This document shows positions 14,647 to 59,330 of a stretch of 64,000 nt of DNA, in pieces (the first letter of the stretch is position 1; every line of letters starts with the position of its first letter). This DNA comes from a virus: the IMG/VR virus record IMGVR_UViG_3300036987_000083, positions 115,490-179,489 of that record; one strand, written 5' to 3'. The position numbers and the translations under genes were made by a program. The notes under the pieces were generated by a model. That model worked only from the letters and a program-made list of their open reading frames with translations, had not been told where the DNA came from and made no database searches.

Positions 14647-15045
14647 ATGAGGAAATGCAGTCGGTGTGAGAAGACACGGAGAGCGAATTCTTTTGGCAGG
14701 CATCACTGGTGCCTGCCCTGTTGCAGAGAAGTCCAGGCAGAGCGGGTCAAGAGGAATCCAGAAGCGGAACGTCAGAGAGTGAAAGAGGCTCAGAAAAAAG
14801 CCAAAGAAAGAAACCGAAACTTTGTCGATAAGGTCAAAGACAAGCCGTGCGTAGATTGTCTAAAAAAATTCAGTTCTTGGATCATGCAGTTCGACCACCG
14901 AGGCGAAAGTAAGAAAGAAGCAGATGTATCGGTTCTTGTTCACAAAGGTTCATCTCTCAAGAGAGTTAAGCGAGAAGTTCTAAAATGCGATGTTGTTTGC
15001 GCGAACTGTCACGCAGACAGAACACACAGAAGACGACTTGAGTGA
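14647..15045 (+). CDS. HNH endonuclease; stop lies inside tRNA-Tyr
   Basis: CVDC..FDHR..KCDVVCANCHADRT. Confidence 0.85.
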   Translation: MRKCSRCEKTRRANSFGRHHWCLPCCREVQAERVKRNPEAERQRVKEAQKKAKERNRNFVDKVKDKPCVDCLKKFSSWIMQFDHRGESKKEADVSVLVHKGSSLKRVKREVLKCDVVCANCHADRTHRRRLE

Positions 15046-15125
15046 GACGTGGCCATTGGCGGCCCACCAGACTGTAAATCTGGCCTCCTTCGGGATACCG
15101 GTGGGTTCGATTCCCACCTCACTCA
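15040..15125 (+). tRNA. tRNA-Tyr(GTA)
   Basis: GAGTGAG/CTCACTC acceptor; CCAGA-CTGTAAA-TCTGG; long variable arm. Confidence 0.85.
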
Positions 15126-15231
15126 CAGAGTTTCAGCAGGACGGACCATCTGGGTCTCTCCGGGTACCTGATAACAGAATAGCAGTGGTGTAGGGGTGGG
15201 GCTCTGGTTGTTGAAGAGTCCTGCCCCGAAT

Positions 15232-15577: not shown

Positions 15578-15589
15578 CAATCCAGTTTC

Positions 15590-15667
15590 AACGAGGCGCT
15601 GCTTCGGGTTACTTCTCTTGAAAAGAATTCCGGGAAACCGGGAACCTGGGGTGCAACATCTTCGTTG
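15590..15667 (+). ncRNA. Small RNA family X, copy 1
   Basis: AACGAGG/CTTCGTT terminal stem; shared CG..TACTTC..AAGAAT..AT core. Confidence 0.55.
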
Positions 15668-15688
15668 GTTCTTTTAGTAATGTTTTGC

Positions 15689-15875: not shown

Positions 15876-15961
15876 GGAAAGTAAATCAGACATGGGTCTG
15901 AGCCTGGGTGCTAACCAGTGCGCACCTTCCGGGGTGTGGGGATCGAGACCTCTGCTTTCCG
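15876..15961 (+). tRNA. 8/4 allo-type tRNA-Ser(GCT)
   Basis: 8-bp acceptor GGAAAGTA/TGCTTTCC; 6-bp D stem TCAGAC/GTCTGA; long V arm; 4-bp T stem; loop GTGCTAA. Confidence 0.7.
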
Positions 15962-16186: not shown

Positions 16187-16320
16187 CGAGGCGTAAGTGA
16201 GAGCTACTCCATGGATCTGTGGGTCGGGGGTTCGAATCTCCCTACAAGGATGTACTTGCATAGCTCAGCCTGGTAGAGCAACAGAATAAAAGATGCTTTC
16301 ACTCAAGTACCATCCTCGTC
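16185..16320 (+). ncRNA. Circularly permuted tRNA mimic (YrlA/Y RNA-like) inside a family X frame
   Basis: Order T-arm, closed acceptor hairpin TACAAG/CTTGCA, D-arm; TCTGT/ACAGA stem; outer stems AGTGAGAGC/GCTTTCACT and GACGAGG/CCTCGTC. Confidence 0.75.
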
Positions 16321-23271: not shown

Positions 23272-23382
23272 GGGCCAGTGCATGGGCAAAACCGGGTTCG
23301 ATTCCCGGCATCTCCACTCTATGGGGATGAACTGGTGTTCCTCACGCGCGGGGGTGAACGGGTTCGACTCCCGTCTGGTCCA
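23272..23382 (+). ncRNA. Two-headed tRNA-like dumbbell RNA (two acceptor+T-arm heads, both G3:U70)
   Basis: Outer GGGCCAG/CTGGTCC with ACGGG T-arm; inner CCGGG T-arm with CATCTCC-ACTCTAT-GGGGATG hairpin. Confidence 0.65.
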
Positions 23383-26492: not shown

Positions 26493-26897
26493 ATGAAGCA
26501 GGAAACTTACCGGTCACCTTGGTTTGATCTTGAAGGGTGCTTGGCCTGTACGGTCAAATATTCGGACGGTTCAAAGGGTACTGTTCTTCAACACCGGGAA
26601 GTTATGGAGCAAGTTCTCGGTCGTAAGTTGAAGCCGCAGGAACTGGTGCATCACAAGAATAGCAACAAGCGGGACAACTCGCCTACCAATTTGAAGATCA
26701 CTTCCAGACCTGCGCACGCCGCCGAGCACGCCAAGACTAGGGTTCCCGAGCTTCTAGAAGTAACCTGTTTGGAGTGTGGAAAGACTTCGCTGAAGCTAGC
26801 TAGGCAAGTAAGGCACAACCAAATTGGTCAACAAAAGCCTGGTCCTTTTTGTGGTCGAAGTTGTGCTGGTAGATTTAACGGACGTAAACGTATTTGA
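26493..26897 (+). CDS. HNH endonuclease (HNH_3 type); stop abuts tRNA-Leu
   Basis: LQHREVME..LGRKLKPQELVHHKNSNKRDNSPTNL. Confidence 0.9.
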   Translation: MKQETYRSPWFDLEGCLACTVKYSDGSKGTVLQHREVMEQVLGRKLKPQELVHHKNSNKRDNSPTNLKITSRPAHAAEHAKTRVPELLEVTCLECGKTSLKLARQVRHNQIGQQKPGPFCGRSCAGRFNGRKRI

Positions 26898-26981
26898 GGG
26901 CTAGTGGCGAAACTGGTAGTCGCGCCAGATTTAGGGTCTGGTGGGGGAAACCCCGTGAGAGTTCGAGTCTCTCCTTGCCCA
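26898..26981 (+). tRNA. tRNA-Leu(TAG)
   Basis: CCAGA-TTTAGGG-TCTGG. Confidence 0.9.
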
Positions 26982-26989
26982 TGTATTGC

Positions 26990-27073
26990 TGCCCGGTGGC
27001 GGAATTGGTAGACGTGGTGGACTTAAAATCCATTGCCCTTCGGGGCGTACGAGTTCGAGTCTCGTTCGGGTAA
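26990..27073 (+). tRNA. tRNA-Leu(TAA)
   Basis: GTGGA-CTTAAAA-TCCAT. Confidence 0.9.
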
Positions 27074-27087
27074 CACGAAATTGCTTT

Positions 27088-27171
27088 GCCCCTGTGGCGG
27101 AATTGGTAAACGCATCAGACTCAAAATCTGACGCCTTAACGGGCTTGAGGGTTCGATTCCCTCTGGGGGCA
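27088..27171 (+). tRNA. tRNA-Leu(CAA)
   Basis: TCAGA-CTCAAAA-TCTGA. Confidence 0.9.
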
Positions 27172-27216
27172 CAGGTGGGCTATCCTTAGTCGGGAAGCTC
27201 ACTTTCGGAGAGTTCA

Positions 27217-27501
27217 ATGTTTCAACAATTGATTCAGCAGTTGAAGGAAGCGAAGCATAAGTTCAGCGCCGCCGATGCTCGACGCATCGGCAACAAGCTC
27301 GGGGTTAACTGGAAGAGGGTCAACCTCGAACAGTTTCGTATGGGCTTGGAGGTGGAGTCCGAGCACGACCAGGGCGACAACATCGACGTGGTCGGCCCTC
27401 AGACGGATCTTGGAAAAATTGCCCTAGCGCACTTGAAGGAGCTTCCAGACTACTACACGCGCCTGAGGCGCATGGAGAAGGACGCGAACGCAGAAGAGTA
27501 G
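27217..27501 (+). CDS. DUF5661-like protein
   Basis: EQFRMGLEVESEH..LGKIALAHLKELPDYYTRLRRME. Confidence 0.75.
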   Translation: MFQQLIQQLKEAKHKFSAADARRIGNKLGVNWKRVNLEQFRMGLEVESEHDQGDNIDVVGPQTDLGKIALAHLKELPDYYTRLRRMEKDANAEE

Positions 27502-27568
27502 AGATTCGAGCGCAGTCAGCTCCATGGTTGTTCACCCGTCGTACAAAACATACAAGGAGGCCGGTAAC

Positions 27569-28114
27569 ATGGAAACTCTAGTTCTGAGCGCGTCGTATGA
27601 GCCAGTTAGCCGGGTCTCCTGGCAGCGAGCGATTACTCTTATTTGGGAAAACAAGGTTGAGGTCATTGAGGAGTACGAGAACCGGTTTGTGCACTCGGTT
27701 ACTCTCGAATTCAAGATGCCTTCAGTCATTCGGTTCCTGAAGGCCATTCGTGGGCGGAAGCGCGCTATCAAGTTCAGCCGCGAGAACGTGTTTGCTCGTG
27801 ACAACGGTCGTTGCCAGTACTGCGCAGTGAAACTGGCGCGTGCGGAATCCACTTACGACCACGTAATCCCTCGGGCAATGGGAGGGCATACGCGGTGGGA
27901 GAACGTTGTAATCGCGTGCTACGCCTGCAACCAGAAGAAAGGCTGCAAGACACCTGAGCAGGCAAAGATGAAGCTGCTCACGCAGCCCATCAAGCCGAAG
28001 AAGCTTCCTGATACACTTCGGCTCACCTTCCAAGTGACAAAGGATACTCCGGATTCGTGGAAGCAGTGGATTGCCTCCGTGAACTACTGGAACACCGAGT
28101 TGGATCAGGACTAA
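27569..28114 (+). CDS. HNH endonuclease (McrA/HNH_5-like)
   Basis: VLSASYEP..FSRENVFARDNGRCQYC..TYDHVIPR..GG..WENVVIACYACNQKKG. Confidence 0.9.
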   Translation: METLVLSASYEPVSRVSWQRAITLIWENKVEVIEEYENRFVHSVTLEFKMPSVIRFLKAIRGRKRAIKFSRENVFARDNGRCQYCAVKLARAESTYDHVIPRAMGGHTRWENVVIACYACNQKKGCKTPEQAKMKLLTQPIKPKKLPDTLRLTFQVTKDTPDSWKQWIASVNYWNTELDQD

Positions 28115-28162
28115 AGAGGTGGACAGGGACTCAAGAGGTTTGAGTCCTCACAGAGGTGAGGC

Positions 28163-28414
28163 ATGAGCGTAAGAGCGAAGATGCGTTGCACGAGAAGGTC
28201 TGAAAGCACTTCGGTTTGCACGAGCAATGGGTCAGTCGAGTCTGTAGAGGTACATCTCCAGCCAGTATACGGAACTGGAGAGGACGACTCGAACAAGGAA
28301 TGGTCTAAGTGGACGCCGAGTGGTGAGGTGCGGATGGTCATCACCAACCCGGAAGCCTATAACCAGTTTGAAGTCGGCAAGACGTACTTTGTCGATTTCA
28401 TTGCTGTAGACTAG
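28163..28414 (+). CDS. Conserved small phage hypothetical protein
   Basis: VRAKMRC..ENKEWSKWTPSGEVRMVITNP..FEVGKTYFVDF pattern; GAGG SD. Confidence 0.7.
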   Translation: MSVRAKMRCTRRSESTSVCTSNGSVESVEVHLQPVYGTGEDDSNKEWSKWTPSGEVRMVITNPEAYNQFEVGKTYFVDFIAVD

Positions 28415-28456
28415 GACCACCTGCCGCCGGGCCCCCAGGGCGCATCTGGGGGTTTT

Positions 28457-28490
28457 GGAAGATTGGGTGAGTGGCTCATACCAGCGGTCT
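28457..28490 (+). pseudogene. 5' half of a canonical tRNA-Ser(GGA)
   Basis: GGAAGAT..GCGGTCT; pairs with the 3' half at 29048-29100. Confidence 0.8.
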
Positions 28491-28493
28491 TTT

Positions 28494-28578
28494 GGAGAGG
28501 TAACTGGTCAGGGACCGGGCTCGACTTGAAATCGAAGCGTGCCTTCATGGGCATGGGGATCAAGACCTCACTTCTCCG
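28494..28578 (+). tRNA. 8/4 allo-type tRNA-Ser(TGA), nested in the split tRNA
   Basis: GGAGAGGT/ACTTCTCC; CTGGTC/GACCGG; TCGA-CTTGAAA-TCGA; GGGG/CCTC T stem. Confidence 0.75.
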
Positions 28579-28579
28579 C

Positions 28580-29038
28580 ATGAACAACTCACAGGTGCAA
28601 AAAGGTGACGTAGCGGTACTGATTGCAACAGCCAAATTCATGGAGGCTGGGCTTATCGTTCTAAAGCCCGTGAGTGAATCTCTACCGTATGACTTAGTAA
28701 TTGCCACCGACAAGCACTTCTACAGAGTTCAAGTGAAGAGGGCTCAGAAGCGCCGCGCGAGCCCAGGAAGATACAGTATCCCGTTCAGGAAAGTGACCGT
28801 CAATAGGAACAAAACAAAGGTCTACACCTATACTGAGGAGCACACAGACTTCCTTGTAGGTGTGATAGTAGAGACGTCCGAACTGTACGTTTACCCTCTT
28901 GCTGAGATCAAGAACATCAGCTCAATGGTGGTCGTCGACCCGGGCGGATTGTCAAAGAAACGCAATGGTCCTCAAAAAGTAGATTCTGAGAGGTACCGAA
29001 ACGTACTTAACTTCGAAGGTAGAAAAATAAAATTGTAG
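28580..29038 (+). CDS. PD-(D/E)XK homing-type endonuclease (I-Ssp6803I/PDDEXK_5-like)
   Basis: KGDVA..G..VLKP....YDLV......RVQVK. Confidence 0.85.
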   Translation: MNNSQVQKGDVAVLIATAKFMEAGLIVLKPVSESLPYDLVIATDKHFYRVQVKRAQKRRASPGRYSIPFRKVTVNRNKTKVYTYTEEHTDFLVGVIVETSELYVYPLAEIKNISSMVVVDPGGLSKKRNGPQKVDSERYRNVLNFEGRKIKL

Positions 29039-29047
29039 TTCTGGATT

Positions 29048-29100
29048 GGAAAACCGCCAGTCCCGAGAGGGGCTCGAAGGTTCGAATCCTTCATCTTCCG
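29048..29100 (+). pseudogene. 3' half of the canonical tRNA-Ser(GGA)
   Basis: GGAAA-ACCGC, V arm, GAAGG-TTCGAAT-CCTTC, ATCTTCC-G. Confidence 0.8.
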
Positions 29101-29105
29101 CTGTT

Positions 29106-29191
29106 GGAAAGTGTGCTGGTCACGGGACCAGGCCTCGCTCGAAACGAGTGCGTGCCTGCAAGGGCACGGGGTTCGATTCCTCCACTTTCCA
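29106..29191 (+). tRNA. 8/4 allo-type tRNA-Ser(CGA)
   Basis: GGAAAGTG/CACTTTCC; CTGGTC-ACGG-GACCAG; CTCG-CTCGAAA-CGAG; GGGG-TTCGATT-CCTC. Confidence 0.8.
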
Positions 29192-29220
29192 TATGAGTTC
29201 GATTGTAGTACCTTCCGCAT

Positions 29221-29580
29221 ATGGGTTATCTCGATCCCGAAGCGCAGCGTAAGTACCAGCGGGAATGGAGAGCGCTACGGCGGGCTGAGTGGTTTAACGG
29301 AAAGAAATGCGTTGAGTGCGGTTCGACCCAAAATCTAGAGTTGGACCACATTGACCCTTCTAAAAAGGTGACCCACAACGTGTGGTCGTGGTCGAAAAAG
29401 CGTCGCGATGCCGAGCTGGGGAAGTGTCAAGCACTCTGCGATGTCTGCCATCAGAAAAAGACCATCGAGACCCGCGAAGTGCGAACGGATCACGGGCGAG
29501 GTCAGATGTACCAAAACTACGGGTGTCGCTGCGTGAAGTGCCGGGCGTGGAAGAGTGCTTCAGATAAACTGTATCGCTAG
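29221..29580 (+). CDS. HNH endonuclease
   Basis: CVECGSTQNLELDHIDP..KCQALCDVCHQKK; HGRG..Y..GCRCVKC. Confidence 0.9.
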   Translation: MGYLDPEAQRKYQREWRALRRAEWFNGKKCVECGSTQNLELDHIDPSKKVTHNVWSWSKKRRDAELGKCQALCDVCHQKKTIETREVRTDHGRGQMYQNYGCRCVKCRAWKSASDKLYR

Positions 29581-29664
29581 GTCTTTCCGCTCCGATGTCA
29601 GGGTTTCGAAGATAGTAACGACCACATGGTCGGACGCAGCACGCAGCACTTCTAAGGACGCCGT

Positions 29665-30285
29665 ATGAAACCGTACCCTTCGATTCCCCGGGCGACCGGT
29701 CGAAGCTTTCACGAAATTCCCAACGCGTACATCTTCGACAAGCTCGATGGTCGTAACATCCGAGTAGAGTGGTCGAGGAGGAACGGCTGGGGCAAGTGGG
29801 GTACACGGCACCGTCTGTTCGATGCCACGGATGCTGAGTTTGCTCCGGCAATTCCGCTCTTTGAGCAGGTCTACGCGGAGCCCATGACAAAGATTGCCAG
29901 AGACAACCGCTGGGAGAGCGTGACGGCATTTCTAGAGTTGTGGCAACCGAACAGTCTCGGGGGTGTTTGGGTTCCAGGAGAGCCGTACACGCTTACGCTG
30001 TTCGACGTGGCACCCTTCAAGCAGTGCCAGATGGCCCCGAAAGAGTTCATAGCGACCTTCAAGGGTGTCCCTACAGCGGCATTCTTGGGGCAGGCCAATT
30101 GGACCCGAGGCTACGTAGAGCGAGTGCGCTCAGGTCAAGTTGAAGGGGTAACTTTTGAGGGTGTCGTGGCGAAGGCAGGCGAGAAGCACAAGCTGGTGCT
30201 GTCGAAAGCGAAGCAGCAACGGTGGGTAGACGCGCTGAAGGCCAGGTATGGCGAGCAGGAAGGCAAGAGGCTTGCCGAGTCGTAG
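29665..30285 (+). CDS. ATP-dependent RNA-ligase-like nucleotidyltransferase
   Basis: Motif I DKLDG; FLELW; LFDV; FEGVVAK. Confidence 0.7.
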   Translation: MKPYPSIPRATGRSFHEIPNAYIFDKLDGRNIRVEWSRRNGWGKWGTRHRLFDATDAEFAPAIPLFEQVYAEPMTKIARDNRWESVTAFLELWQPNSLGGVWVPGEPYTLTLFDVAPFKQCQMAPKEFIATFKGVPTAAFLGQANWTRGYVERVRSGQVEGVTFEGVVAKAGEKHKLVLSKAKQQRWVDALKARYGEQEGKRLAES

Positions 30286-30292
30286 GAATTTT

Positions 30293-30377
30293 GGAGAGTT
30301 AACTAGCTAGGAGCTAGACCCGGTTGGAAACCGGTGGGTACCTGCAAAGGTATGAGATTCGAGTTCTCAGCTTTCCG
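30293..30377 (+). tRNA. 8/4 allo-type tRNA-Ser(GGA)
   Basis: GGAGAGTT/AGCTTTCC; CTAGCT/AGCTAG; CCGG-TTGGAAA-CCGG; GAGA-TTCGAGT-TCTC. Confidence 0.8.
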
Positions 30378-30379
30378 CT

Positions 30380-30445
30380 CGTGAGGCGCATGAACTGGGT
30401 TACTTCCTGCTAAGAAAAATACCTAGTTCGACTTTATCCTCACGT
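30380..30445 (+). ncRNA. Small RNA family X, copy 3 (minimal)
   Basis: CGTGAGG/CCTCACG; GAACTGGGT/ACCTAGTTC; TACTTC..GAAAAAT. Confidence 0.6.
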
Positions 30446-30452
30446 TTTATTT

Positions 30453-30527
30453 GGCCCCGTAGCTCAGTTGGACCAGAGCGCTCCCCTTCTAAGGGAGAAG
30501 TCGCAGGTTCGAGTCCTGCCGGGGTCG
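30453..30527 (+). tRNA. tRNA-Arg(TCT)
   Basis: CTCCC-CTTCTAA-GGGAG. Confidence 0.9.
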
Positions 30528-30558
30528 TAGCCCAACACCACTGCTATTCCTCAGGCAC

Positions 30559-30587
30559 TTGACAATCGCAACACTACCGACTAGTAT
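30559..30587 (+). promoter_or_regulatory. Sigma70-type promoter
   Basis: TTGACA-17-TAGTAT. Confidence 0.7.
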
Positions 30588-30608
30588 GCCTCTCAGTTCT
30601 CGGGAGGT

Positions 30609-31955
30609 GTGCCACGTTGCTTAGCTACTCCACGGCCTTGGAAGTACGGACCTCTTGTCAGGGCTTTGGGCACCTCTTCGTCGGCGGACGCTATGGGTAT
30701 TGATCCACACGAAAGCTTGCGTCAGCGCGTTGCCGCTCGGAAGAGCAAGGAAGAGATCCGCGCCAAGGCGTTGGAAGAGCTGCAGGCGAAGGAGGCCAAG
30801 CTCTGTAAGGCGCTGCGCGAGACCACCATGGATAGGCCGATCAAGGCTGAGTTCCACGAGCTGGTGAAGATTTGCCCGAAGATGGGGCAGCACCTCAGCC
30901 ACGGTCCTGCTCTGTATGTCGGTGGGGTTGTCGAACGGTCCCCCTACGTCGAAGCCGTTTCGGAACTCCTGAAACTGGAACCGATTCGGGAATTGAAAGA
31001 GTGGAAGCCCCAGGGAAAGAGCGCGGAAGCGCTCTTTCGTTCTTTGGGGAGCCATCTTCTCGCGAAATACCCGCTTCCCCCTTTCCTGTGGAATGGCTTC
31101 ATGGGTCCGCAGCGGGTGTGGTTCATCCCCATGGTTAGGCATCTCGCGCTCGGAGGCTCGCTCGCGCAGTACATCAAGACGAGCAATTTCCCCGTTAAGC
31201 TGACTCGCAAGCTGTGCCACGACTTTCTCAAAACACCCGCCAATACTGGAGTCATCCCTGCACTTCGGGGTGCGCAGATTCGCGGTCTCGGAGGGAGTAA
31301 TCGGCTGTTGACTGCGGTGTTGTCTACGCCGTTGGGCTCAACCCTTTGTGTGGATCAGGCCATGGAGGATTTCTACCAAGCAATGTTCCTCTGGTTTGTG
31401 AATCAGCCCATGCTCGACCCGCAGCAGGTCGCCCCGATGGTGGATTACATCCGCCACTGCCGTGACACGGATACTGGCTACACGCTCAAAGGCCGCACCG
31501 CGCTCTCCTTGATGCGTGGAATGGAAGAGTGGCACACGGAAACCGCTCGAAGGAGCGAAATTGGTCACAAAGGCGCTTCGCACTTTAAGCCTTCGGGATT
31601 TTCTGGCGCGGAGTATGACTTCTCGCGTGACAGCCCTACTGGGAAAATCATCGAGATTTGGCGCATTGCTGAAATCCTCACGGCCAAGGCACTGGCCGAT
31701 GAAGGCAAACGGCAGGGCCACTGTGTTTTCTCCTATTCCCGTCGGATTGAGACTGGCTCTTGTTCCATCTGGACCCTCAGCAAAGAAGATAACAAGTCTC
31801 TCGCAGAACATGGCGGGGTTTGGAACATGCTGACTTTGGAAGTCCGTAATGACATTCGGCAGGTAGTACAGGCCAGAGGCCGGTTCAACCGTTGCGCTAC
31901 CACCCACGAGAAGAACATCCTGTCTCGCTGGATGGCTATGGGCGCCTACGTATGA
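30609..31955 (+). CDS. PcfJ-domain protein (start uncertain, possibly 30693)
   Basis: C-terminal LADEGKRQGHCVFSY..SIWTL..LTLEV..VVQARGRFNR. Confidence 0.8.
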   Translation: MPRCLATPRPWKYGPLVRALGTSSSADAMGIDPHESLRQRVAARKSKEEIRAKALEELQAKEAKLCKALRETTMDRPIKAEFHELVKICPKMGQHLSHGPALYVGGVVERSPYVEAVSELLKLEPIRELKEWKPQGKSAEALFRSLGSHLLAKYPLPPFLWNGFMGPQRVWFIPMVRHLALGGSLAQYIKTSNFPVKLTRKLCHDFLKTPANTGVIPALRGAQIRGLGGSNRLLTAVLSTPLGSTLCVDQAMEDFYQAMFLWFVNQPMLDPQQVAPMVDYIRHCRDTDTGYTLKGRTALSLMRGMEEWHTETARRSEIGHKGASHFKPSGFSGAEYDFSRDSPTGKIIEIWRIAEILTAKALADEGKRQGHCVFSYSRRIETGSCSIWTLSKEDNKSLAEHGGVWNMLTLEVRNDIRQVVQARGRFNRCATTHEKNILSRWMAMGAYV

Positions 31956-35069: not shown

Positions 35070-35144
35070 GGCCTCTTAGCTCAATAGGCAGAGCGTGAAC
35101 AGTAATGACGTTCAAGGTAATCGGTTCGAATCCGATAGAGGTCG
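35070..35144 (+). tRNA. Isolated tRNA with a 9-nt anticodon loop (identity undetermined)
   Basis: GGCCTCT/AGAGGTC; canonical D and T arms; TGAAC-AGTAATGAC-GTTCA. Confidence 0.65.
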
Positions 35145-42828: not shown

Positions 42829-45135
42829 GTGGAATCGCGTCATCGCAAAGTGCTGAGGTCGCTCCGCAAGGTGGTGGAGGCATCGGATCGTCCAGAACTT
42901 CGAGCAGAGCCACCAGATGCTGCGAGTTACCGAGCGGGCAATGCTCCGAACACCTCTCGACGGTGTCCAGAGGGCTTCGCTTTTGACGGAAAGCACTGCG
43001 TACCCGTTAGGAAGAAGAAAAACTCTGCTCCTACTAAGCCGGGTAGCTCCAAGAGCAGCGCGTTGCCGAGAGATCCTCCTGAGTCCCGTCGCCAAGACGA
43101 CCCCGATGACTTCCCGAATACCCGGGAGCACGAAAAGTCCGCCCAGCAAAAAGATATTCCGCTCGTTCCGGATCCAAAGAGCGAAGTCATGCAGCGGTTG
43201 CACAACGCAGTAACGCTTTCGAATGGGTTGCGCTCCTTTGAGTATGCGGAAGCGGAGTACAAGGAATACGCACACAGCGGCTTCATCCAGTCAAAGTTTC
43301 CAGACGCCTTTAAGGACAAGCAGGACTTCATCGCGGAGTTTTTGAACGGAGATCATGTTGCAGTAAGTGACTGGGCATCGATAAAGAACACATCCGCCTC
43401 CGAACAGCCAGAAGGCGATTACCCCAGCCTGTTCAAAAAGTTTTGGGAGTTCCAAGGGACTAAGTGGGCAGAGAAGGGCGTTGATGACAAGACTAATGAA
43501 GAGCGCTTCAAAACCTATTTGGATGGGCTCATTGAGAAAGCCGATGCAGAGGACGAAGAAACTACCCCTCCGGTGATTGTGGGAGTGCACCGGGACCCGA
43601 CGCTCGGTACGGAAACTTCCTGGTTGTTGGCGGGGAACTCCCGTGCGCTGCTTTACGCTTTCATCGGTAAAGCGGCGCCTACTCGGATGGTTCCGCTAAA
43701 AGGTCGGATGCTGCCAGATCCTACCGAGGAAGAGCTTCAAACTGTTTTGTGGCCTGCGGAGTCCTCTTCGGAGGACGATGATGAGCTAGAGCAGAATGTT
43801 CGCGCTGCCGTGCAACAGGTAATCGCCGGGCGCGGAGGACAGCCCCCGGGCGGAAGCCCCCCTCCCCCGGAGGCCGCCGTGCCTCCAGCTCCGGCCGCCG
43901 CACCTCCGGCGGCTGCCCCGCCAGAGGCCGCAGCTCCTCCGCAAGAGGCGGTACTACGGGTGCTGAAGACAATCTTCGAGTCAGAGTACAAACACCCCTC
44001 TGGGCACACGAAAAGGTTGTTCTCCAAAGCGTTTAAGACTCTCGGGTACCCTGTAGGCACTGTGCGCAACTGGGCTCGCGGGAAGGTAATAAAGACCCGG
44101 GATGGCTGGGAAGAGGTACCGGCAGGGACTAAAGCCCCCAAAATTGCCACGCCCTTGGTGCCTGCCGCACAGCATGACCAGCCCCGCCCTAAGCTTGCGC
44201 TTAAGAGGGCTGCAGCAGCGCCCCCTGTTGCGAACCTCCCTGCGAGAGATTCTGACGAAGCTCACTGGATTGAGGCTATTCCGGACTTCCCTGCAGAAAC
44301 GACGCAGAAGCACTATGGTCCGAACCGCGCGCCAAAGGCTTACCGACAAAAGCTGCACAACAGCATCATCTCCAAGTACTTCGACAAAGTGCCTGCACCT
44401 AGCGCGGAGACGCTAAGGACCAAGAAGCCTGTAGCCATCATGCTGATGGGGGGTCCTGCTTCCGGAAAAAGCACGATTGGTGGGGCCTACCCGGACACTC
44501 AATTCATCCACCTGGATGCAGACGCCCTTAAGGAGCACCTCCCAGAGTATAAAGTTGCTACGAAATGGCGAGCTAAAAACGCCGCGAAGATGACTCACGA
44601 GGAGTCTATCCACCTGATGCAACAGCTACGGGAAAAGACTATCTCCGCTCGTAAGAATCTCGTGATGGATGGGACGGGACGACACGTCACTTCTTACCTG
44701 AATATGATTACGAAGCTGAAGACTGCAGGGTACCACGTGAAAGTGGTACTGGCCGACATTGACCAGGACCTGGCCCGCAAGCGCGCCAAAATTCGGGCGC
44801 AGTCAGGGGGACGCTGGGTGCCACCCCATGTTTTTGACGCCGCCTACGCTGCAGTGCCTAAAAACTTCGCAGAGATTGCAAGTGCTGCCCACGAATTTGA
44901 GCTTTGGGACACTCGCCCTGAAGGCGAGCCGCAACTGAAGTGGGAAAAGACAGGTGGAGAAGAGCACATTCACGACCCTGTGTTTGTGGAGCGATTCCAG
45001 AAACAGTATGTTCGTGAGCCCAATCGAGGTGCGGTCTACCCACCTCATAAGCGGAGACCTGTTTCTTTTGTCCCGTCGAAGCAGACAAAGGCAGAGGCTG
45101 TTGCCGCGCTTAAGAACATCTTCGTGCTGGGCTAG
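42829..45135 (+). CDS. Large multidomain protein with a C-terminal zeta-toxin-like P-loop kinase
   Basis: MGGPASGKST..LDADALKEHLPEY..HEES..NLVMDGTG..GGRWVP; internal YPVGTVRNW motif. Confidence 0.8.
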   Translation: MESRHRKVLRSLRKVVEASDRPELRAEPPDAASYRAGNAPNTSRRCPEGFAFDGKHCVPVRKKKNSAPTKPGSSKSSALPRDPPESRRQDDPDDFPNTREHEKSAQQKDIPLVPDPKSEVMQRLHNAVTLSNGLRSFEYAEAEYKEYAHSGFIQSKFPDAFKDKQDFIAEFLNGDHVAVSDWASIKNTSASEQPEGDYPSLFKKFWEFQGTKWAEKGVDDKTNEERFKTYLDGLIEKADAEDEETTPPVIVGVHRDPTLGTETSWLLAGNSRALLYAFIGKAAPTRMVPLKGRMLPDPTEEELQTVLWPAESSSEDDDELEQNVRAAVQQVIAGRGGQPPGGSPPPPEAAVPPAPAAAPPAAAPPEAAAPPQEAVLRVLKTIFESEYKHPSGHTKRLFSKAFKTLGYPVGTVRNWARGKVIKTRDGWEEVPAGTKAPKIATPLVPAAQHDQPRPKLALKRAAAAPPVANLPARDSDEAHWIEAIPDFPAETTQKHYGPNRAPKAYRQKLHNSIISKYFDKVPAPSAETLRTKKPVAIMLMGGPASGKSTIGGAYPDTQFIHLDADALKEHLPEYKVATKWRAKNAAKMTHEESIHLMQQLREKTISARKNLVMDGTGRHVTSYLNMITKLKTAGYHVKVVLADIDQDLARKRAKIRAQSGGRWVPPHVFDAAYAAVPKNFAEIASAAHEFELWDTRPEGEPQLKWEKTGGEEHIHDPVFVERFQKQYVREPNRGAVYPPHKRRPVSFVPSKQTKAEAVAALKNIFVLG

Positions 45136-50234: not shown

Positions 50235-51038
50235 ATGGACACCATCTACAAGTACCCACGCACAAAGCACATCTACGGCTCCAGGCTTCAAGACGGAGAC
50301 GAAGACCTTGAGGCTGTTCGATTAGACACGCTCAAGGGTAAGTATCTTGTTGTCGAAGAGAAGGTGGATGGCGCCAACAGCGGTATTTCCTTTGATTCGG
50401 ACACTTTAGAGCTTCGGCTTCAGAGTCGGGGACACTACCTCGGCTTGGAACCGAGCTACCGCGAGCGGCACTTCAACCTCTTCAAAAAGTGGGCAGTCCT
50501 TCATGAGGGCTGGCTGATGGACAAGCTTCAGGACAAGTACATTGCCTACGGCGAATGGATGTGGGCCAAGCACACGGAGTACTACGACCAACTTCCTCAC
50601 TACTGGATGGAGTTCGACGTGCTGGAAAAGTCGACTGGCAAGTTCTTCTCCACTGCCCGTCGTAAGGAATTCTGGAAGGGATGCCCGGTTGTTTCTGTTC
50701 CGGTGGTGCATGCTGGTCCTCTGGATAACCTCAAGCAACTCTCGTCCTTGATTCGACCGTCTCTTTACAAGAGTTCCAATTGGAAGGGCGCCTTGGCCGA
50801 AACGGCTAAAAGGAAGCAGTTGGACCTGGAGCGCATCATCAAAGAAACCGACCAGAGTGACTTAGCCGAAGGTGTCTACATCAAGTACGAAAGCGATGAC
50901 GAGACACTGGAGCGGTTCAAGTTCGTCCGTCATGAATTCGTACAGGCAATCAAGGACGCCGAAGGCCATTGGCTATCCAGGCCCATCGTCGAGAACCGCC
51001 TGGCAACAGGGGTCGACATTTTTGCGAGCCAGCTATGA
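50235..51038 (+). CDS. RNA ligase, Rnl2-like
   Basis: KYPRTKH..VEEKVDGAN..YGEW..EFDV..EGVYIK. Confidence 0.85.
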   Translation: MDTIYKYPRTKHIYGSRLQDGDEDLEAVRLDTLKGKYLVVEEKVDGANSGISFDSDTLELRLQSRGHYLGLEPSYRERHFNLFKKWAVLHEGWLMDKLQDKYIAYGEWMWAKHTEYYDQLPHYWMEFDVLEKSTGKFFSTARRKEFWKGCPVVSVPVVHAGPLDNLKQLSSLIRPSLYKSSNWKGALAETAKRKQLDLERIIKETDQSDLAEGVYIKYESDDETLERFKFVRHEFVQAIKDAEGHWLSRPIVENRLATGVDIFASQL

Positions 51039-58052: not shown

Positions 58053-59330
58053 TTGACGATGGCGTTGTCCAGGTTGCAGGGTACTCAGACGGAAGTCTTG
58101 TTGTGGTCCCCTCTTGAAGAAGTCGAGCTTGACGCACAGAAGCAGCTCATCAACACCGCTTCGCTTGCTCAGGCAGTGAAGGTGCTGTCGATGCCCGACG
58201 TGCACACCGGCTACGGTGTTGCTGTTGGGTCGGTTGTCGCTTTGAAGGACGCGGTTTGTCCGAATATCGTCGGCGTAGATATCGGCTGCGGCATGATGGC
58301 TTACCGCACCAATCTCACTGCTGACATGATGCCTAAGGATTTGTCCTCTCTGCGTGCGCGCATTGAAGAGTTCATTCCTATGGGCACAGGACAGTGCCAC
58401 GAAGACCCCTCTGAGTTGATTAAGGCCCCTCAGTACGAGGAGTTGTGGGCTCGCGTAGCTGCTGCGGACCAAACCAAGTGCACCATGGAGAAGGCCAAGC
58501 AGCAAATGGGCACCTTGGGTTCTGGAAACCACTTCATCGAGGTGTGTCTCGACTCGGAAGAGCACGTGTGGCTGATGCTGCATTCTGGTAGCCGTAATTT
58601 TGGCCTCCAGGTGGCGGAAGTCTACCAGTGGAAGGCCTCGATGCTTCCCATCAACGCAAACCTTCCTGACCAATCTTTGGCGGTGCTACCTCGTAGCTCT
58701 CCGGAGTTCATGGCCTATTGGACCGACATGCAGACGGCGCAGCTCTACGCAAAGCTGAACCGCGATACCATGTTTGAGTTGCTCCTTCGGGCACTTAAGG
58801 CTGAAGGCCTTAAGGTCGAGACTACGGACATTGGCGTCAACTGCCACCACAATTACGCCATGGAAGAGGTTCATGAGGGGGAGACGCTTGTCGTAGCCCG
58901 TAAGGGCGCCATCAGCGCAAGGAAGGGCGAAATGGGCATCATCCCGGGCGCGATGGGACGCAAGAGCTTCATCGTAGAGGGTTTGGGCAACCCTGAGAGC
59001 CTGCTGAGCGCCAGCCACGGAGCTGGCCGAAAGATGAGCCGTACCAAGGCGAAGAATACCTTCTCGCTAGACGACCTTCGCGCTTCCACCAAGGGAGTCG
59101 AGTGCCACATCGGCAAGGATGTCCTTGATGAGATTGCGGAGGCCTACAAGGACATCGAAAAGGTGATGCTCTATCAGGCGGATCTTGTCCGTCCCCTGTA
59201 TGAGCTGCGCTCCATCCTAACCGCCAAGGGCCATGATCAGAAAATCAAGGTCGATCGAAAGGCGGAAGCAAAGGCGCGAGAGGCAGAGCGTCGCGAGGCT
59301 CGCACCTTCAAGCAAGGTTGCCGTCAGTAG
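58053..59330 (+). CDS. rtcB: RtcB RNA-splicing ligase
   Basis: MPDVHTGYG..VGVDIGCG..GTLGSGNHFIE..LHSGSR..HHNY..RKGA..SASHGAGR..DEIAEAYKDI. Confidence 0.95.
   Translation: MTMALSRLQGTQTEVLLWSPLEEVELDAQKQLINTASLAQAVKVLSMPDVHTGYGVAVGSVVALKDAVCPNIVGVDIGCGMMAYRTNLTADMMPKDLSSLRARIEEFIPMGTGQCHEDPSELIKAPQYEELWARVAAADQTKCTMEKAKQQMGTLGSGNHFIEVCLDSEEHVWLMLHSGSRNFGLQVAEVYQWKASMLPINANLPDQSLAVLPRSSPEFMAYWTDMQTAQLYAKLNRDTMFELLLRALKAEGLKVETTDIGVNCHHNYAMEEVHEGETLVVARKGAISARKGEMGIIPGAMGRKSFIVEGLGNPESLLSASHGAGRKMSRTKAKNTFSLDDLRASTKGVECHIGKDVLDEIAEAYKDIEKVMLYQADLVRPLYELRSILTAKGHDQKIKVDRKAEAKAREAERREARTFKQGCRQ

Follow-up and report, generated by a model that had tools for sequence, protein, structure and literature searches.

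I-Ssp6803I (PDB 2OST) is the PD-(D/E)XK homing endonuclease of the group I intron in the Synechocystis tRNA-fMet gene. It binds a 23-bp pseudo-palindromic target, and the family that it represents has been described as mainly cyanobacterial (PMC3384342). Models have been put forward in which an endonuclease was pre-adapted to a conserved site before it joined an intron (PMC3984707). SegB of phage T4 recognizes a motif in tRNA genes and spreads itself together with the flanking tRNA genes, the tRNA-plus-segB unit being rearranged through microhomology (PMC2330249, PMC13096335), and it shows no isotype preference (PMC13096335). A further relevant system is the (8/4) tRNA-Ser of the allo-tRNA group, which combines an 8-bp acceptor with a 4-bp T stem and a long variable arm and carries Ser anticodons (Mukai et al. 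2017, PMC5389517) and whose genes have been reported from phages and their hosts (PMC5389517).

The locus described here, in which a nuclease gene of the I-Ssp6803I family (PF11645) and a complete (8/4) tRNA-Ser gene lie between the two halves of a canonical tRNA-Ser gene, belongs to an uncultivated phage of ~180 kb. The stretch of DNA analyzed, which we call the window, is the final 64 kb of its 179,489-base IMG/VR virus record. The phage carries a large tRNA array, in which ARAGORN at default settings finds 42 tRNA genes.

The split tRNA-Ser gene and its anticodon

Joining positions 28457-28490 of the window to 29048-29100 gave an 87-nt type II tRNA-Ser that ARAGORN accepted at default settings, and in intron mode on the genome the program reported the same gene as tRNA-Ser(gga) i(34,557), with a 557-nt intron after gene position 34. 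In the joined tRNA the acceptor is 7 bp long, the D arm contains GG, the anticodon stem has 5 bp and the variable arm 6 bp, and the T stem of 5 bp carries the loop TTCGAAT; G73 is present, and all of the universal tRNA positions are kept. All 12 acceptor and anticodon-stem pairs between the halves are complementary, and the halves meet with neither a gap nor an overlap. Both are undecayed, which fits a recent insertion and would also fit continued function.

From sequence alone, the joined loop can be read either as CT|GGAAA, with the anticodon GGA, or as CTT|GAAA, with the anticodon UGA, since the junctions contain runs of T and A that leave room for several loops of 7 nt. The anticodon arm of the UGA reading, GCGGTCTTGAAAACCGC, was found at at least 117 IMG/VR sites, and among the matches listed 105 were called tRNA-Ser(tga) by ARAGORN. 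The 17-mer arm of the GGA reading, GCGGTCTGGAAAACCGC, was found at 8 IMG/VR sites, none of them in a tRNA, and a 22-mer of this reading had no match in 185,579 species genomes. We therefore rejected GGA as the anticodon of the split gene, since its arm matches no tRNA and the UGA arm is the common arm of tRNA-Ser(UGA). These counts strongly favor a canonical tRNA-Ser(UGA) as the gene that was broken, with the loop CTTGAAA and the break between U34 and G35, and this reading allows only one partition into exons and insert, the one given in Table 1. It follows that the nested tRNA shares the anticodon of the gene that it interrupts. Another locus with the T arm and variable arm of the split gene (L157) proved to be an ordinary tRNA-Ser(GGA) in an unrelated phage and was set aside.

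The pentamer TTGGA occurs at both junctions (28492-28496 and 29046-29050), and TCTGGA occurs at 29040-29045; these repeats may be microhomology or chance. We rejected TTGGA as a target-site duplication because removal of one copy leaves a 10-nt loop, and no long direct repeats were found flanking the insert. The hairpin that adjoins the split gene is terminator-like as read from its letters, and a terminator scan left it uncalled because its T run is only 4 long.

The comparison with insert-free relatives that the earlier note had proposed yielded none: no uninterrupted allele of the split gene was found at the same position in a relative, and among contigs of four runs covering 26500-31000 (two metagenomes) there was no insert-free variant and no joint across the insert. 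Neither single-protein scans of IMG/VR nor profile scans of species genomes found close relatives, and larger alignments were too divergent for pattern scans.

Table 1. Positions of the features of the locus and its surroundings, in window coordinates
Feature	Positions	Strand	Remarks
(8/4) tRNA-Ser(GCU)	15876..15960	+	fourth member of the 8/4 set
HNH_5 endonuclease gene	27524..28114	+	second mobile-type nuclease nearby; syntenic with L010:2681-3322
Terminator-like GC hairpin	28432..28456	+	CCCCCAG-GGCGCAT-CTGGGGG, then TTTT; adjoins base 1 of the split tRNA; read from sequence
5' part of canonical (7/5) tRNA-Ser(UGA) (exon 1)	28457..28491	+	acceptor 5' strand, D arm, anticodon-stem 5' strand, C32 U33 U34
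Insert	28492..29048	+	557 nt; TT + 8/4 tRNA + C + nuclease ORF + TTCTGGATTG
Nested (8/4) tRNA-Ser(UGA)	28494..28578	+	85 nt; ARAGORN and covariation
Homing-endonuclease-like gene, I-Ssp6803I family (PF11645)	28580..29038	+	free-standing; 459-nt ORF; 152 aa
3' part of canonical tRNA-Ser(UGA) (exon 2)	29049..29100	+	G35 A36 A37 A38, anticodon-stem 3' strand, variable arm, T arm, acceptor 3' strand, through G73
(8/4) tRNA-Ser(CGA)	29106..29191	+	5 nt after the split gene; Rfam tRNA-Sec model 37.2 bits
Small HNH endonuclease gene	29221..29580	+	
(8/4) tRNA-Ser(GGA)	30293..30377	+	decoder of the phage for UCC/UCU
ATP-dependent RNA ligase	50343..50927	+	PF09414, E 3.8e-32; context only
RtcB RNA ligase	58143..59231	+	PF01139, E 2e-107; context only

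The insert: an (8/4) tRNA-Ser and a PF11645 nuclease gene

The tRNA and the ORF together take up all but 13 nt of the insert. The nested tRNA has an 8-bp acceptor, a 6-bp D stem with a 3-4-nt loop, a bulged anticodon stem, a long variable arm, a 4-bp T stem and G73, without an encoded CCA, so that the 12-bp branch, long variable arm and Ser anticodon of an (8/4) tRNA-Ser are all present. Its anticodon is the same as that of the broken gene and its anticodon arm is different. Across six homologues, 98.3% of cells are paired in the 8/4 fold, compared with at most 47.5% when the partners are slid, and 18 of the 30 pairs show changes on both sides. The eighth acceptor pair, 8-78, appears as GC, UA, AU and CG in the six sequences; the CGA copy cannot form a fifth T-stem pair (C.C), and G8-C pairs in it.

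Three more (8/4) tRNA-Ser genes accompany it in the phage, and the four anticodons (GCU, UGA, CGA and GGA) cover all Ser codons. Since this full set includes UGA, the split gene is redundant; the nested tRNA is the only convincing UGA decoder of the phage. It may have arrived with the nuclease or may have been an earlier resident gene. Compared with the allo-tRNA group as described, the phage is distinguished by having a complete four-anticodon 8/4 set and by having one member nested within a canonical tRNA-Ser gene, where it is coupled to the gene of a nuclease. All four genes are missed by ARAGORN at default settings, and Rfam gives a tRNA-Sec score, even sub-threshold, for one only. Relaxed ARAGORN also offered a tRNA-Ser(tga) at 15584-15673 and a tRNA-Leu at 28072-28159, both of which were discarded for poor stems.

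Several other elements of the array and its neighborhood were observed in passing. A type II, canonical 7/5 tRNA-Tyr(GUA) at 15040-15126 escapes ARAGORN at default settings and scores 34 bits under the Rfam tRNA-Sec model, and tRNA-Ile genes with the unusual anticodons AAU and UAU lie at 35070-35144 of the window and 43838-43910 of the genome. The array also holds a tmRNA-like fragment at 23292-23367 (permuted tmRNA, 40.8 bits against a gathering score of 47; beta_tmRNA, 32.6 bits) and a sub-threshold match to YrlA (Y RNA-like) at 16197-16305 (39.4 bits, gathering score 69). A second sub-threshold YrlA match lies in the tRNA array of an unrelated nuclease-bearing phage contig (L030:1531-1633, 33.7 bits). 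Between the small HNH gene and the (8/4) tRNA-Ser(GGA) is a 206-aa ORF (29665-30285) with a KLDG (KxDG) motif, which has a weak PHROG RNA ligase match only (phrog_548, E 7e-4) and no Pfam or PDB sequence match.

The protein encoded by the nuclease gene matches PF11645 (PDDEXK_5) with an E value of 4.4e-23 (82.3 bits, cut-off 26.1; 81.7 bits in the genome search). This is its only Pfam domain, and no GIY-YIG domain was found. In a phmmer comparison with I-Ssp6803I (PDB 2OST; E 6e-10), the YDLV and VQVK blocks are identical, and the catalytic Asp and QxK motif are kept, with D38, Q51 and K53 invariant in 18 clade members. A 191-aa gene call from a TTG at 28463 is an over-extension, because the homologues start at the Met of 28580. 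The gene is single-copy, and neither a second copy nor a donor site was found in the same genome.

The nuclease thus shares with I-Ssp6803I its family, its size (152 versus 151 aa), its D...QxK signature and a lodging in the anticodon region of a tRNA gene, where the stem DNA is naturally pseudo-palindromic. Unlike I-Ssp6803I, it is not encoded within a self-splicing group I intron and is free-standing, in a phage; the interrupted gene is a tRNA-Ser rather than a tRNA-fMet gene and has no evident means of restoration, and the nuclease is linked to a complete second tRNA gene. The ORF, which lacks a Shine-Dalgarno sequence, begins one base after the discriminator of the nested tRNA (28578-28582); the nuclease mRNA would therefore be left leaderless once the 3' end of the tRNA is processed. 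In one homologue (L011:700-744), TTTACA-17-TATAGT stands six bases before the ATG.

Much of this is as the earlier note had described it. It had claimed that a canonical tRNA-Ser with a 7-bp acceptor and a 5-bp anticodon stem is split at the anticodon by an insert of ~557 nt with TTGGA at both junctions, that the insert consists of a complete allo-type tRNA-Ser(TGA) followed at once by an I-Ssp6803I-like nuclease, and that no room is left for a ribozyme core, and all of these points were borne out. The loop CTGGAAA (GGA) that it gave for the joined tRNA gives way to CTTGAAA (UGA), which the arm counts favor.

Relatives of the nuclease and their tRNA-Ser neighbors

A profile search returned ~28 cluster representatives of the full-length nuclease clade at E<1e-26. 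We read the contexts of the window and nine other loci, leaving out those of P0002, P0004, P0007 and P0013. In all 10 of these independent contexts, the nuclease gene lies 0-77 nt from a tRNA-Ser gene or overlaps it. In the nine other contexts, the tRNA-Ser gene is always on the same strand as the nuclease, upstream or downstream of it and with any Ser anticodon. It lies upstream as an 8/4 Ser-GGA at 77 nt (L011), as Ser-UGA at 34 nt (L024-27) and 16 nt (L029) and as Ser-GCU at 15 nt (L032). Ser-CGA overlaps the end of the ORF by 22 nt in L010 and lies 15 nt downstream in L030, where it is the only Ser gene among nine tRNAs, and Ser-GCU has one base in common with the nuclease stop codon in L031. 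Two contexts have a tRNA-Ser on either side: Ser-GGA 51 nt upstream and a Ser-UGA-like gene 2 nt downstream in L028, and Ser-GGA 29 nt upstream and Ser-UGA abutting the nuclease stop in L036/37. We found no account of a family-wide link of PF11645 nucleases with tRNA genes of class II in the literature searched; the close linkage of the nuclease relatives to tRNA-Ser in all 10 contexts is new here.

No split tRNA-Ser gene was found in the nine other contexts by ARAGORN with introns of up to 900 nt, and in these relatives the nuclease gene stands between intact genes, adjoining a tRNA-Ser. Its position varies, as a comparison of the window, L010, L011 and L036 shows (after Ser-UGA, before Ser-CGA, after Ser-GGA). 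The window and L010 have in common the order Leu(tag)-Leu(taa)...Leu(caa)-HNH_5, and in L010 the nuclease is elsewhere. In L036, a 226-kb NCBI contig (GCA_040384045.1), an orphan 3' tRNA-Ser remnant lies ~45 nt past the nuclease-tRNA unit (L036:2575-2622); its variable arm is identical in 14 of 14 positions to that of the neighboring Ser-UGA, its T stem carries compensatory changes, and no matching 5' strand was found nearby. In the locus L032, an arm close to the tRNA-Ser(UGA) consensus is retained at 335 nt from the nuclease.

More distant PF11645 homologues, annotated as hypothetical proteins, were found in cultured phages. Those of Escherichia phage UPEC06 (L033, 1474-1851) and Klebsiella phage K54_rec4 (L035, 1483-1830) end 0-1 nt before a tRNA-Tyr gene, and that of Vibrio phage Morian (L034, 1477-1878) lies in a tRNA array between tRNA-Met and tRNA-Asn. 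The relatives of I-Ssp6803I thus appear in large phages as free-standing genes, forming a lineage linked to tRNA genes of class II, with Ser in the close contexts and Tyr in distant homologues of cultured phages. We also observed that in the phage-like contigs L024-L027 the pair of tRNA-Ser(UGA) and nuclease has a full EF-Tu gene immediately upstream.

Origin of the split gene

We consider it likely that the PF11645 homing-endonuclease gene and the (8/4) tRNA-Ser(UGA) were inserted as a unit between U34 and G35 of the canonical tRNA-Ser(UGA) gene. The nuclease would have cut the conserved, pseudo-palindromic anticodon arm of that gene, and repair of the break would have drawn on a donor with the tRNA-plus-nuclease unit, the joining being in part illegitimate or by microhomology; the specificity of cleavage, the donor and the way of joining are what we infer here. 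Insertion would destroy the target site and thereby give self-immunity. The 8/4 tRNA, with the same anticodon and another arm, would be both a resistant allele and a functional replacement, and the split gene would therefore be a scar, tolerated and probably recent, rather than a gene that is spliced. We offer the anticodon arm as the target of the nuclease as a hypothesis only, because the relatives adjoin all four Ser anticodons and L032 keeps its near-consensus UGA arm. The earlier note had suggested an intron-free homing element that supplies its own replacement tRNA. The 10-of-10 linkage to tRNA-Ser, the lack of a ribozyme and the exact isoacceptor speak for this suggestion; the replacement part of it gains from the UGA anticodon now read for the broken gene, with the caveat that the nested tRNA belongs to the four-member 8/4 set of the phage.

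By analogy, the nuclease is best read as a PD-(D/E)XK counterpart of T4 SegB, which would work like SegB without being a member of its family. Its gene, like that of SegB in T4/T6, is free-standing, is situated in the tRNA array of a phage and would move together with flanking tRNA genes. The two differ in fold, which is GIY-YIG in SegB, and in their neighbors, the present clade being tied to tRNA-Ser and its distant homologues to tRNA-Tyr. To our knowledge, SegB has not been found inside a tRNA gene.

Rejoining of the halves as RNA, which the earlier note had offered as its other explanation in the form of a protein-spliced tRNA intron sealed by RtcB/Rnl, gained no positive support. The nearest parallel is with the bulge-helix-bulge introns and split tRNAs of archaea (EndA plus RtcB), which resemble the locus in the interruption of the anticodon loop and in an RtcB encoded in the genome. 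Here, however, the context is that of a bacterial virus and the break lies at 34/35 instead of the canonical 37/38; EndA (PF01974) is absent from the phage genome (archaeal controls were positive), and a bulge-helix-bulge (3-4-3) is absent from the junctions by inspection and in the precursor fold. What the junctions can form is limited to a U:A/G helix of 4 bp with a one-base bulge. No group I, group II or other Rfam intron model matched at E<=10 on 4 kb or on 851 nt, and no group I ribozyme core with P1 was found; a GGGACC that could pair to the exon end lies in the D arm of the nested tRNA, at a chance expectation of ~0.4 per 50 nt. We regard it as improbable that the 557 nt are instead a protein-dependent tRNA intron, from which RNase P, RNase Z or an unknown nuclease would release the nested tRNA and the nuclease mRNA and whose flanking halves would be joined by the phage RtcB/Rnl into a working canonical tRNA-Ser. 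It would account for two intact halves with every universal position kept, the phage has genes both for RtcB and for an ATP-dependent RNA ligase, there is a ligase-like ORF 570 nt downstream, and under the UGA reading exon 1 ends in U and the insert in G, for which the chance expectation is 1 in 16. RtcB and RNA ligases are usual in tRNA-rich phages, however, and are not specific evidence; together, to judge from their sequences, they are likely to be a tRNA-repair kit. RNase P processing leaves 3'-OH and 5'-P ends, which RtcB does not join. A cut by RNase P at 28493/28494 would leave exon 1 with a UU-3'OH tail unsuitable for RtcB, and we know of no activity that cuts at 29048/29049. The gene is, moreover, redundant with the nested UGA tRNA, none of the other nuclease contexts is split and the terminator-like hairpin abuts the 5' half. 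It is very improbable that the broken tRNA-Ser(UGA) is rebuilt as RNA, with RNase P/RNase Z maturation severing the precursor, the halves annealing and the phage repair enzymes Rnl or RtcB sealing the anticodon loop once the ends have been trimmed. If it were true, such rebuilding would amount to a ribozyme-free, tRNA-processing-driven tRNA intron in a bacterial virus. Because the intact halves are compatible with function, we leave a small probability for rejoining at the RNA level; splicing of the split gene is unsupported.

The split could also have come about without a cut by the PF11645 nuclease, through illegitimate recombination or rearrangement within the cluster of similar tRNA-Ser genes; the nuclease would then be only a neighbor. 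The short repeats at the junctions (TTGGA at both, and TCTGGA) would suit such an event, as would the presence of four or five Ser tRNA genes and three nuclease genes within 3 kb, and the break could have been made by either of the two nearby HNH genes. We nevertheless consider it unlikely, since the break falls exactly in the anticodon, the part of a tRNA gene that the characterized member of the nuclease family is described as targeting, since tRNA sequence at the junction was neither lost nor duplicated and since the strict linkage of the clade to tRNA-Ser makes a causal role for the nuclease more economical. The record is a metagenome-assembled viral contig, and the split gene might in principle be a product of chimeric assembly, or two unrelated tRNA fragments might match by chance. 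Positions 28366-30111, however, are identical (0 differences) on contigs of two independent studies, of groundwater and coal metagenomes, so the locus is not an assembly artefact, and the complementarity of every acceptor and anticodon-stem pair across a joint with no gap or overlap makes a chance match extremely improbable.

Insertion of the nuclease gene and the (8/4) tRNA-Ser as a unit is therefore the reading that we prefer, and the locus combines known kinds of element, a free-standing homing endonuclease and an (8/4) tRNA, rather than representing a new splicing system. For tRNA annotation, the five real tRNA genes that default finders missed here mean that tRNA counts in such phages are underestimates. 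For the PF11645 family, the window shows a nuclease inside a tRNA anticodon without an intron, which is the intermediate expected by the pre-adaptation models. For the phage, the association of the nuclease with an 8/4 tRNA that has the same anticodon, could stand in for the broken gene and would lack the target arm suggests a drive-plus-rescue design. If confirmed, such a design would help to explain both the reshuffling of tRNA arrays in large phages and the spread of (8/4) tRNA-Ser genes among phages.
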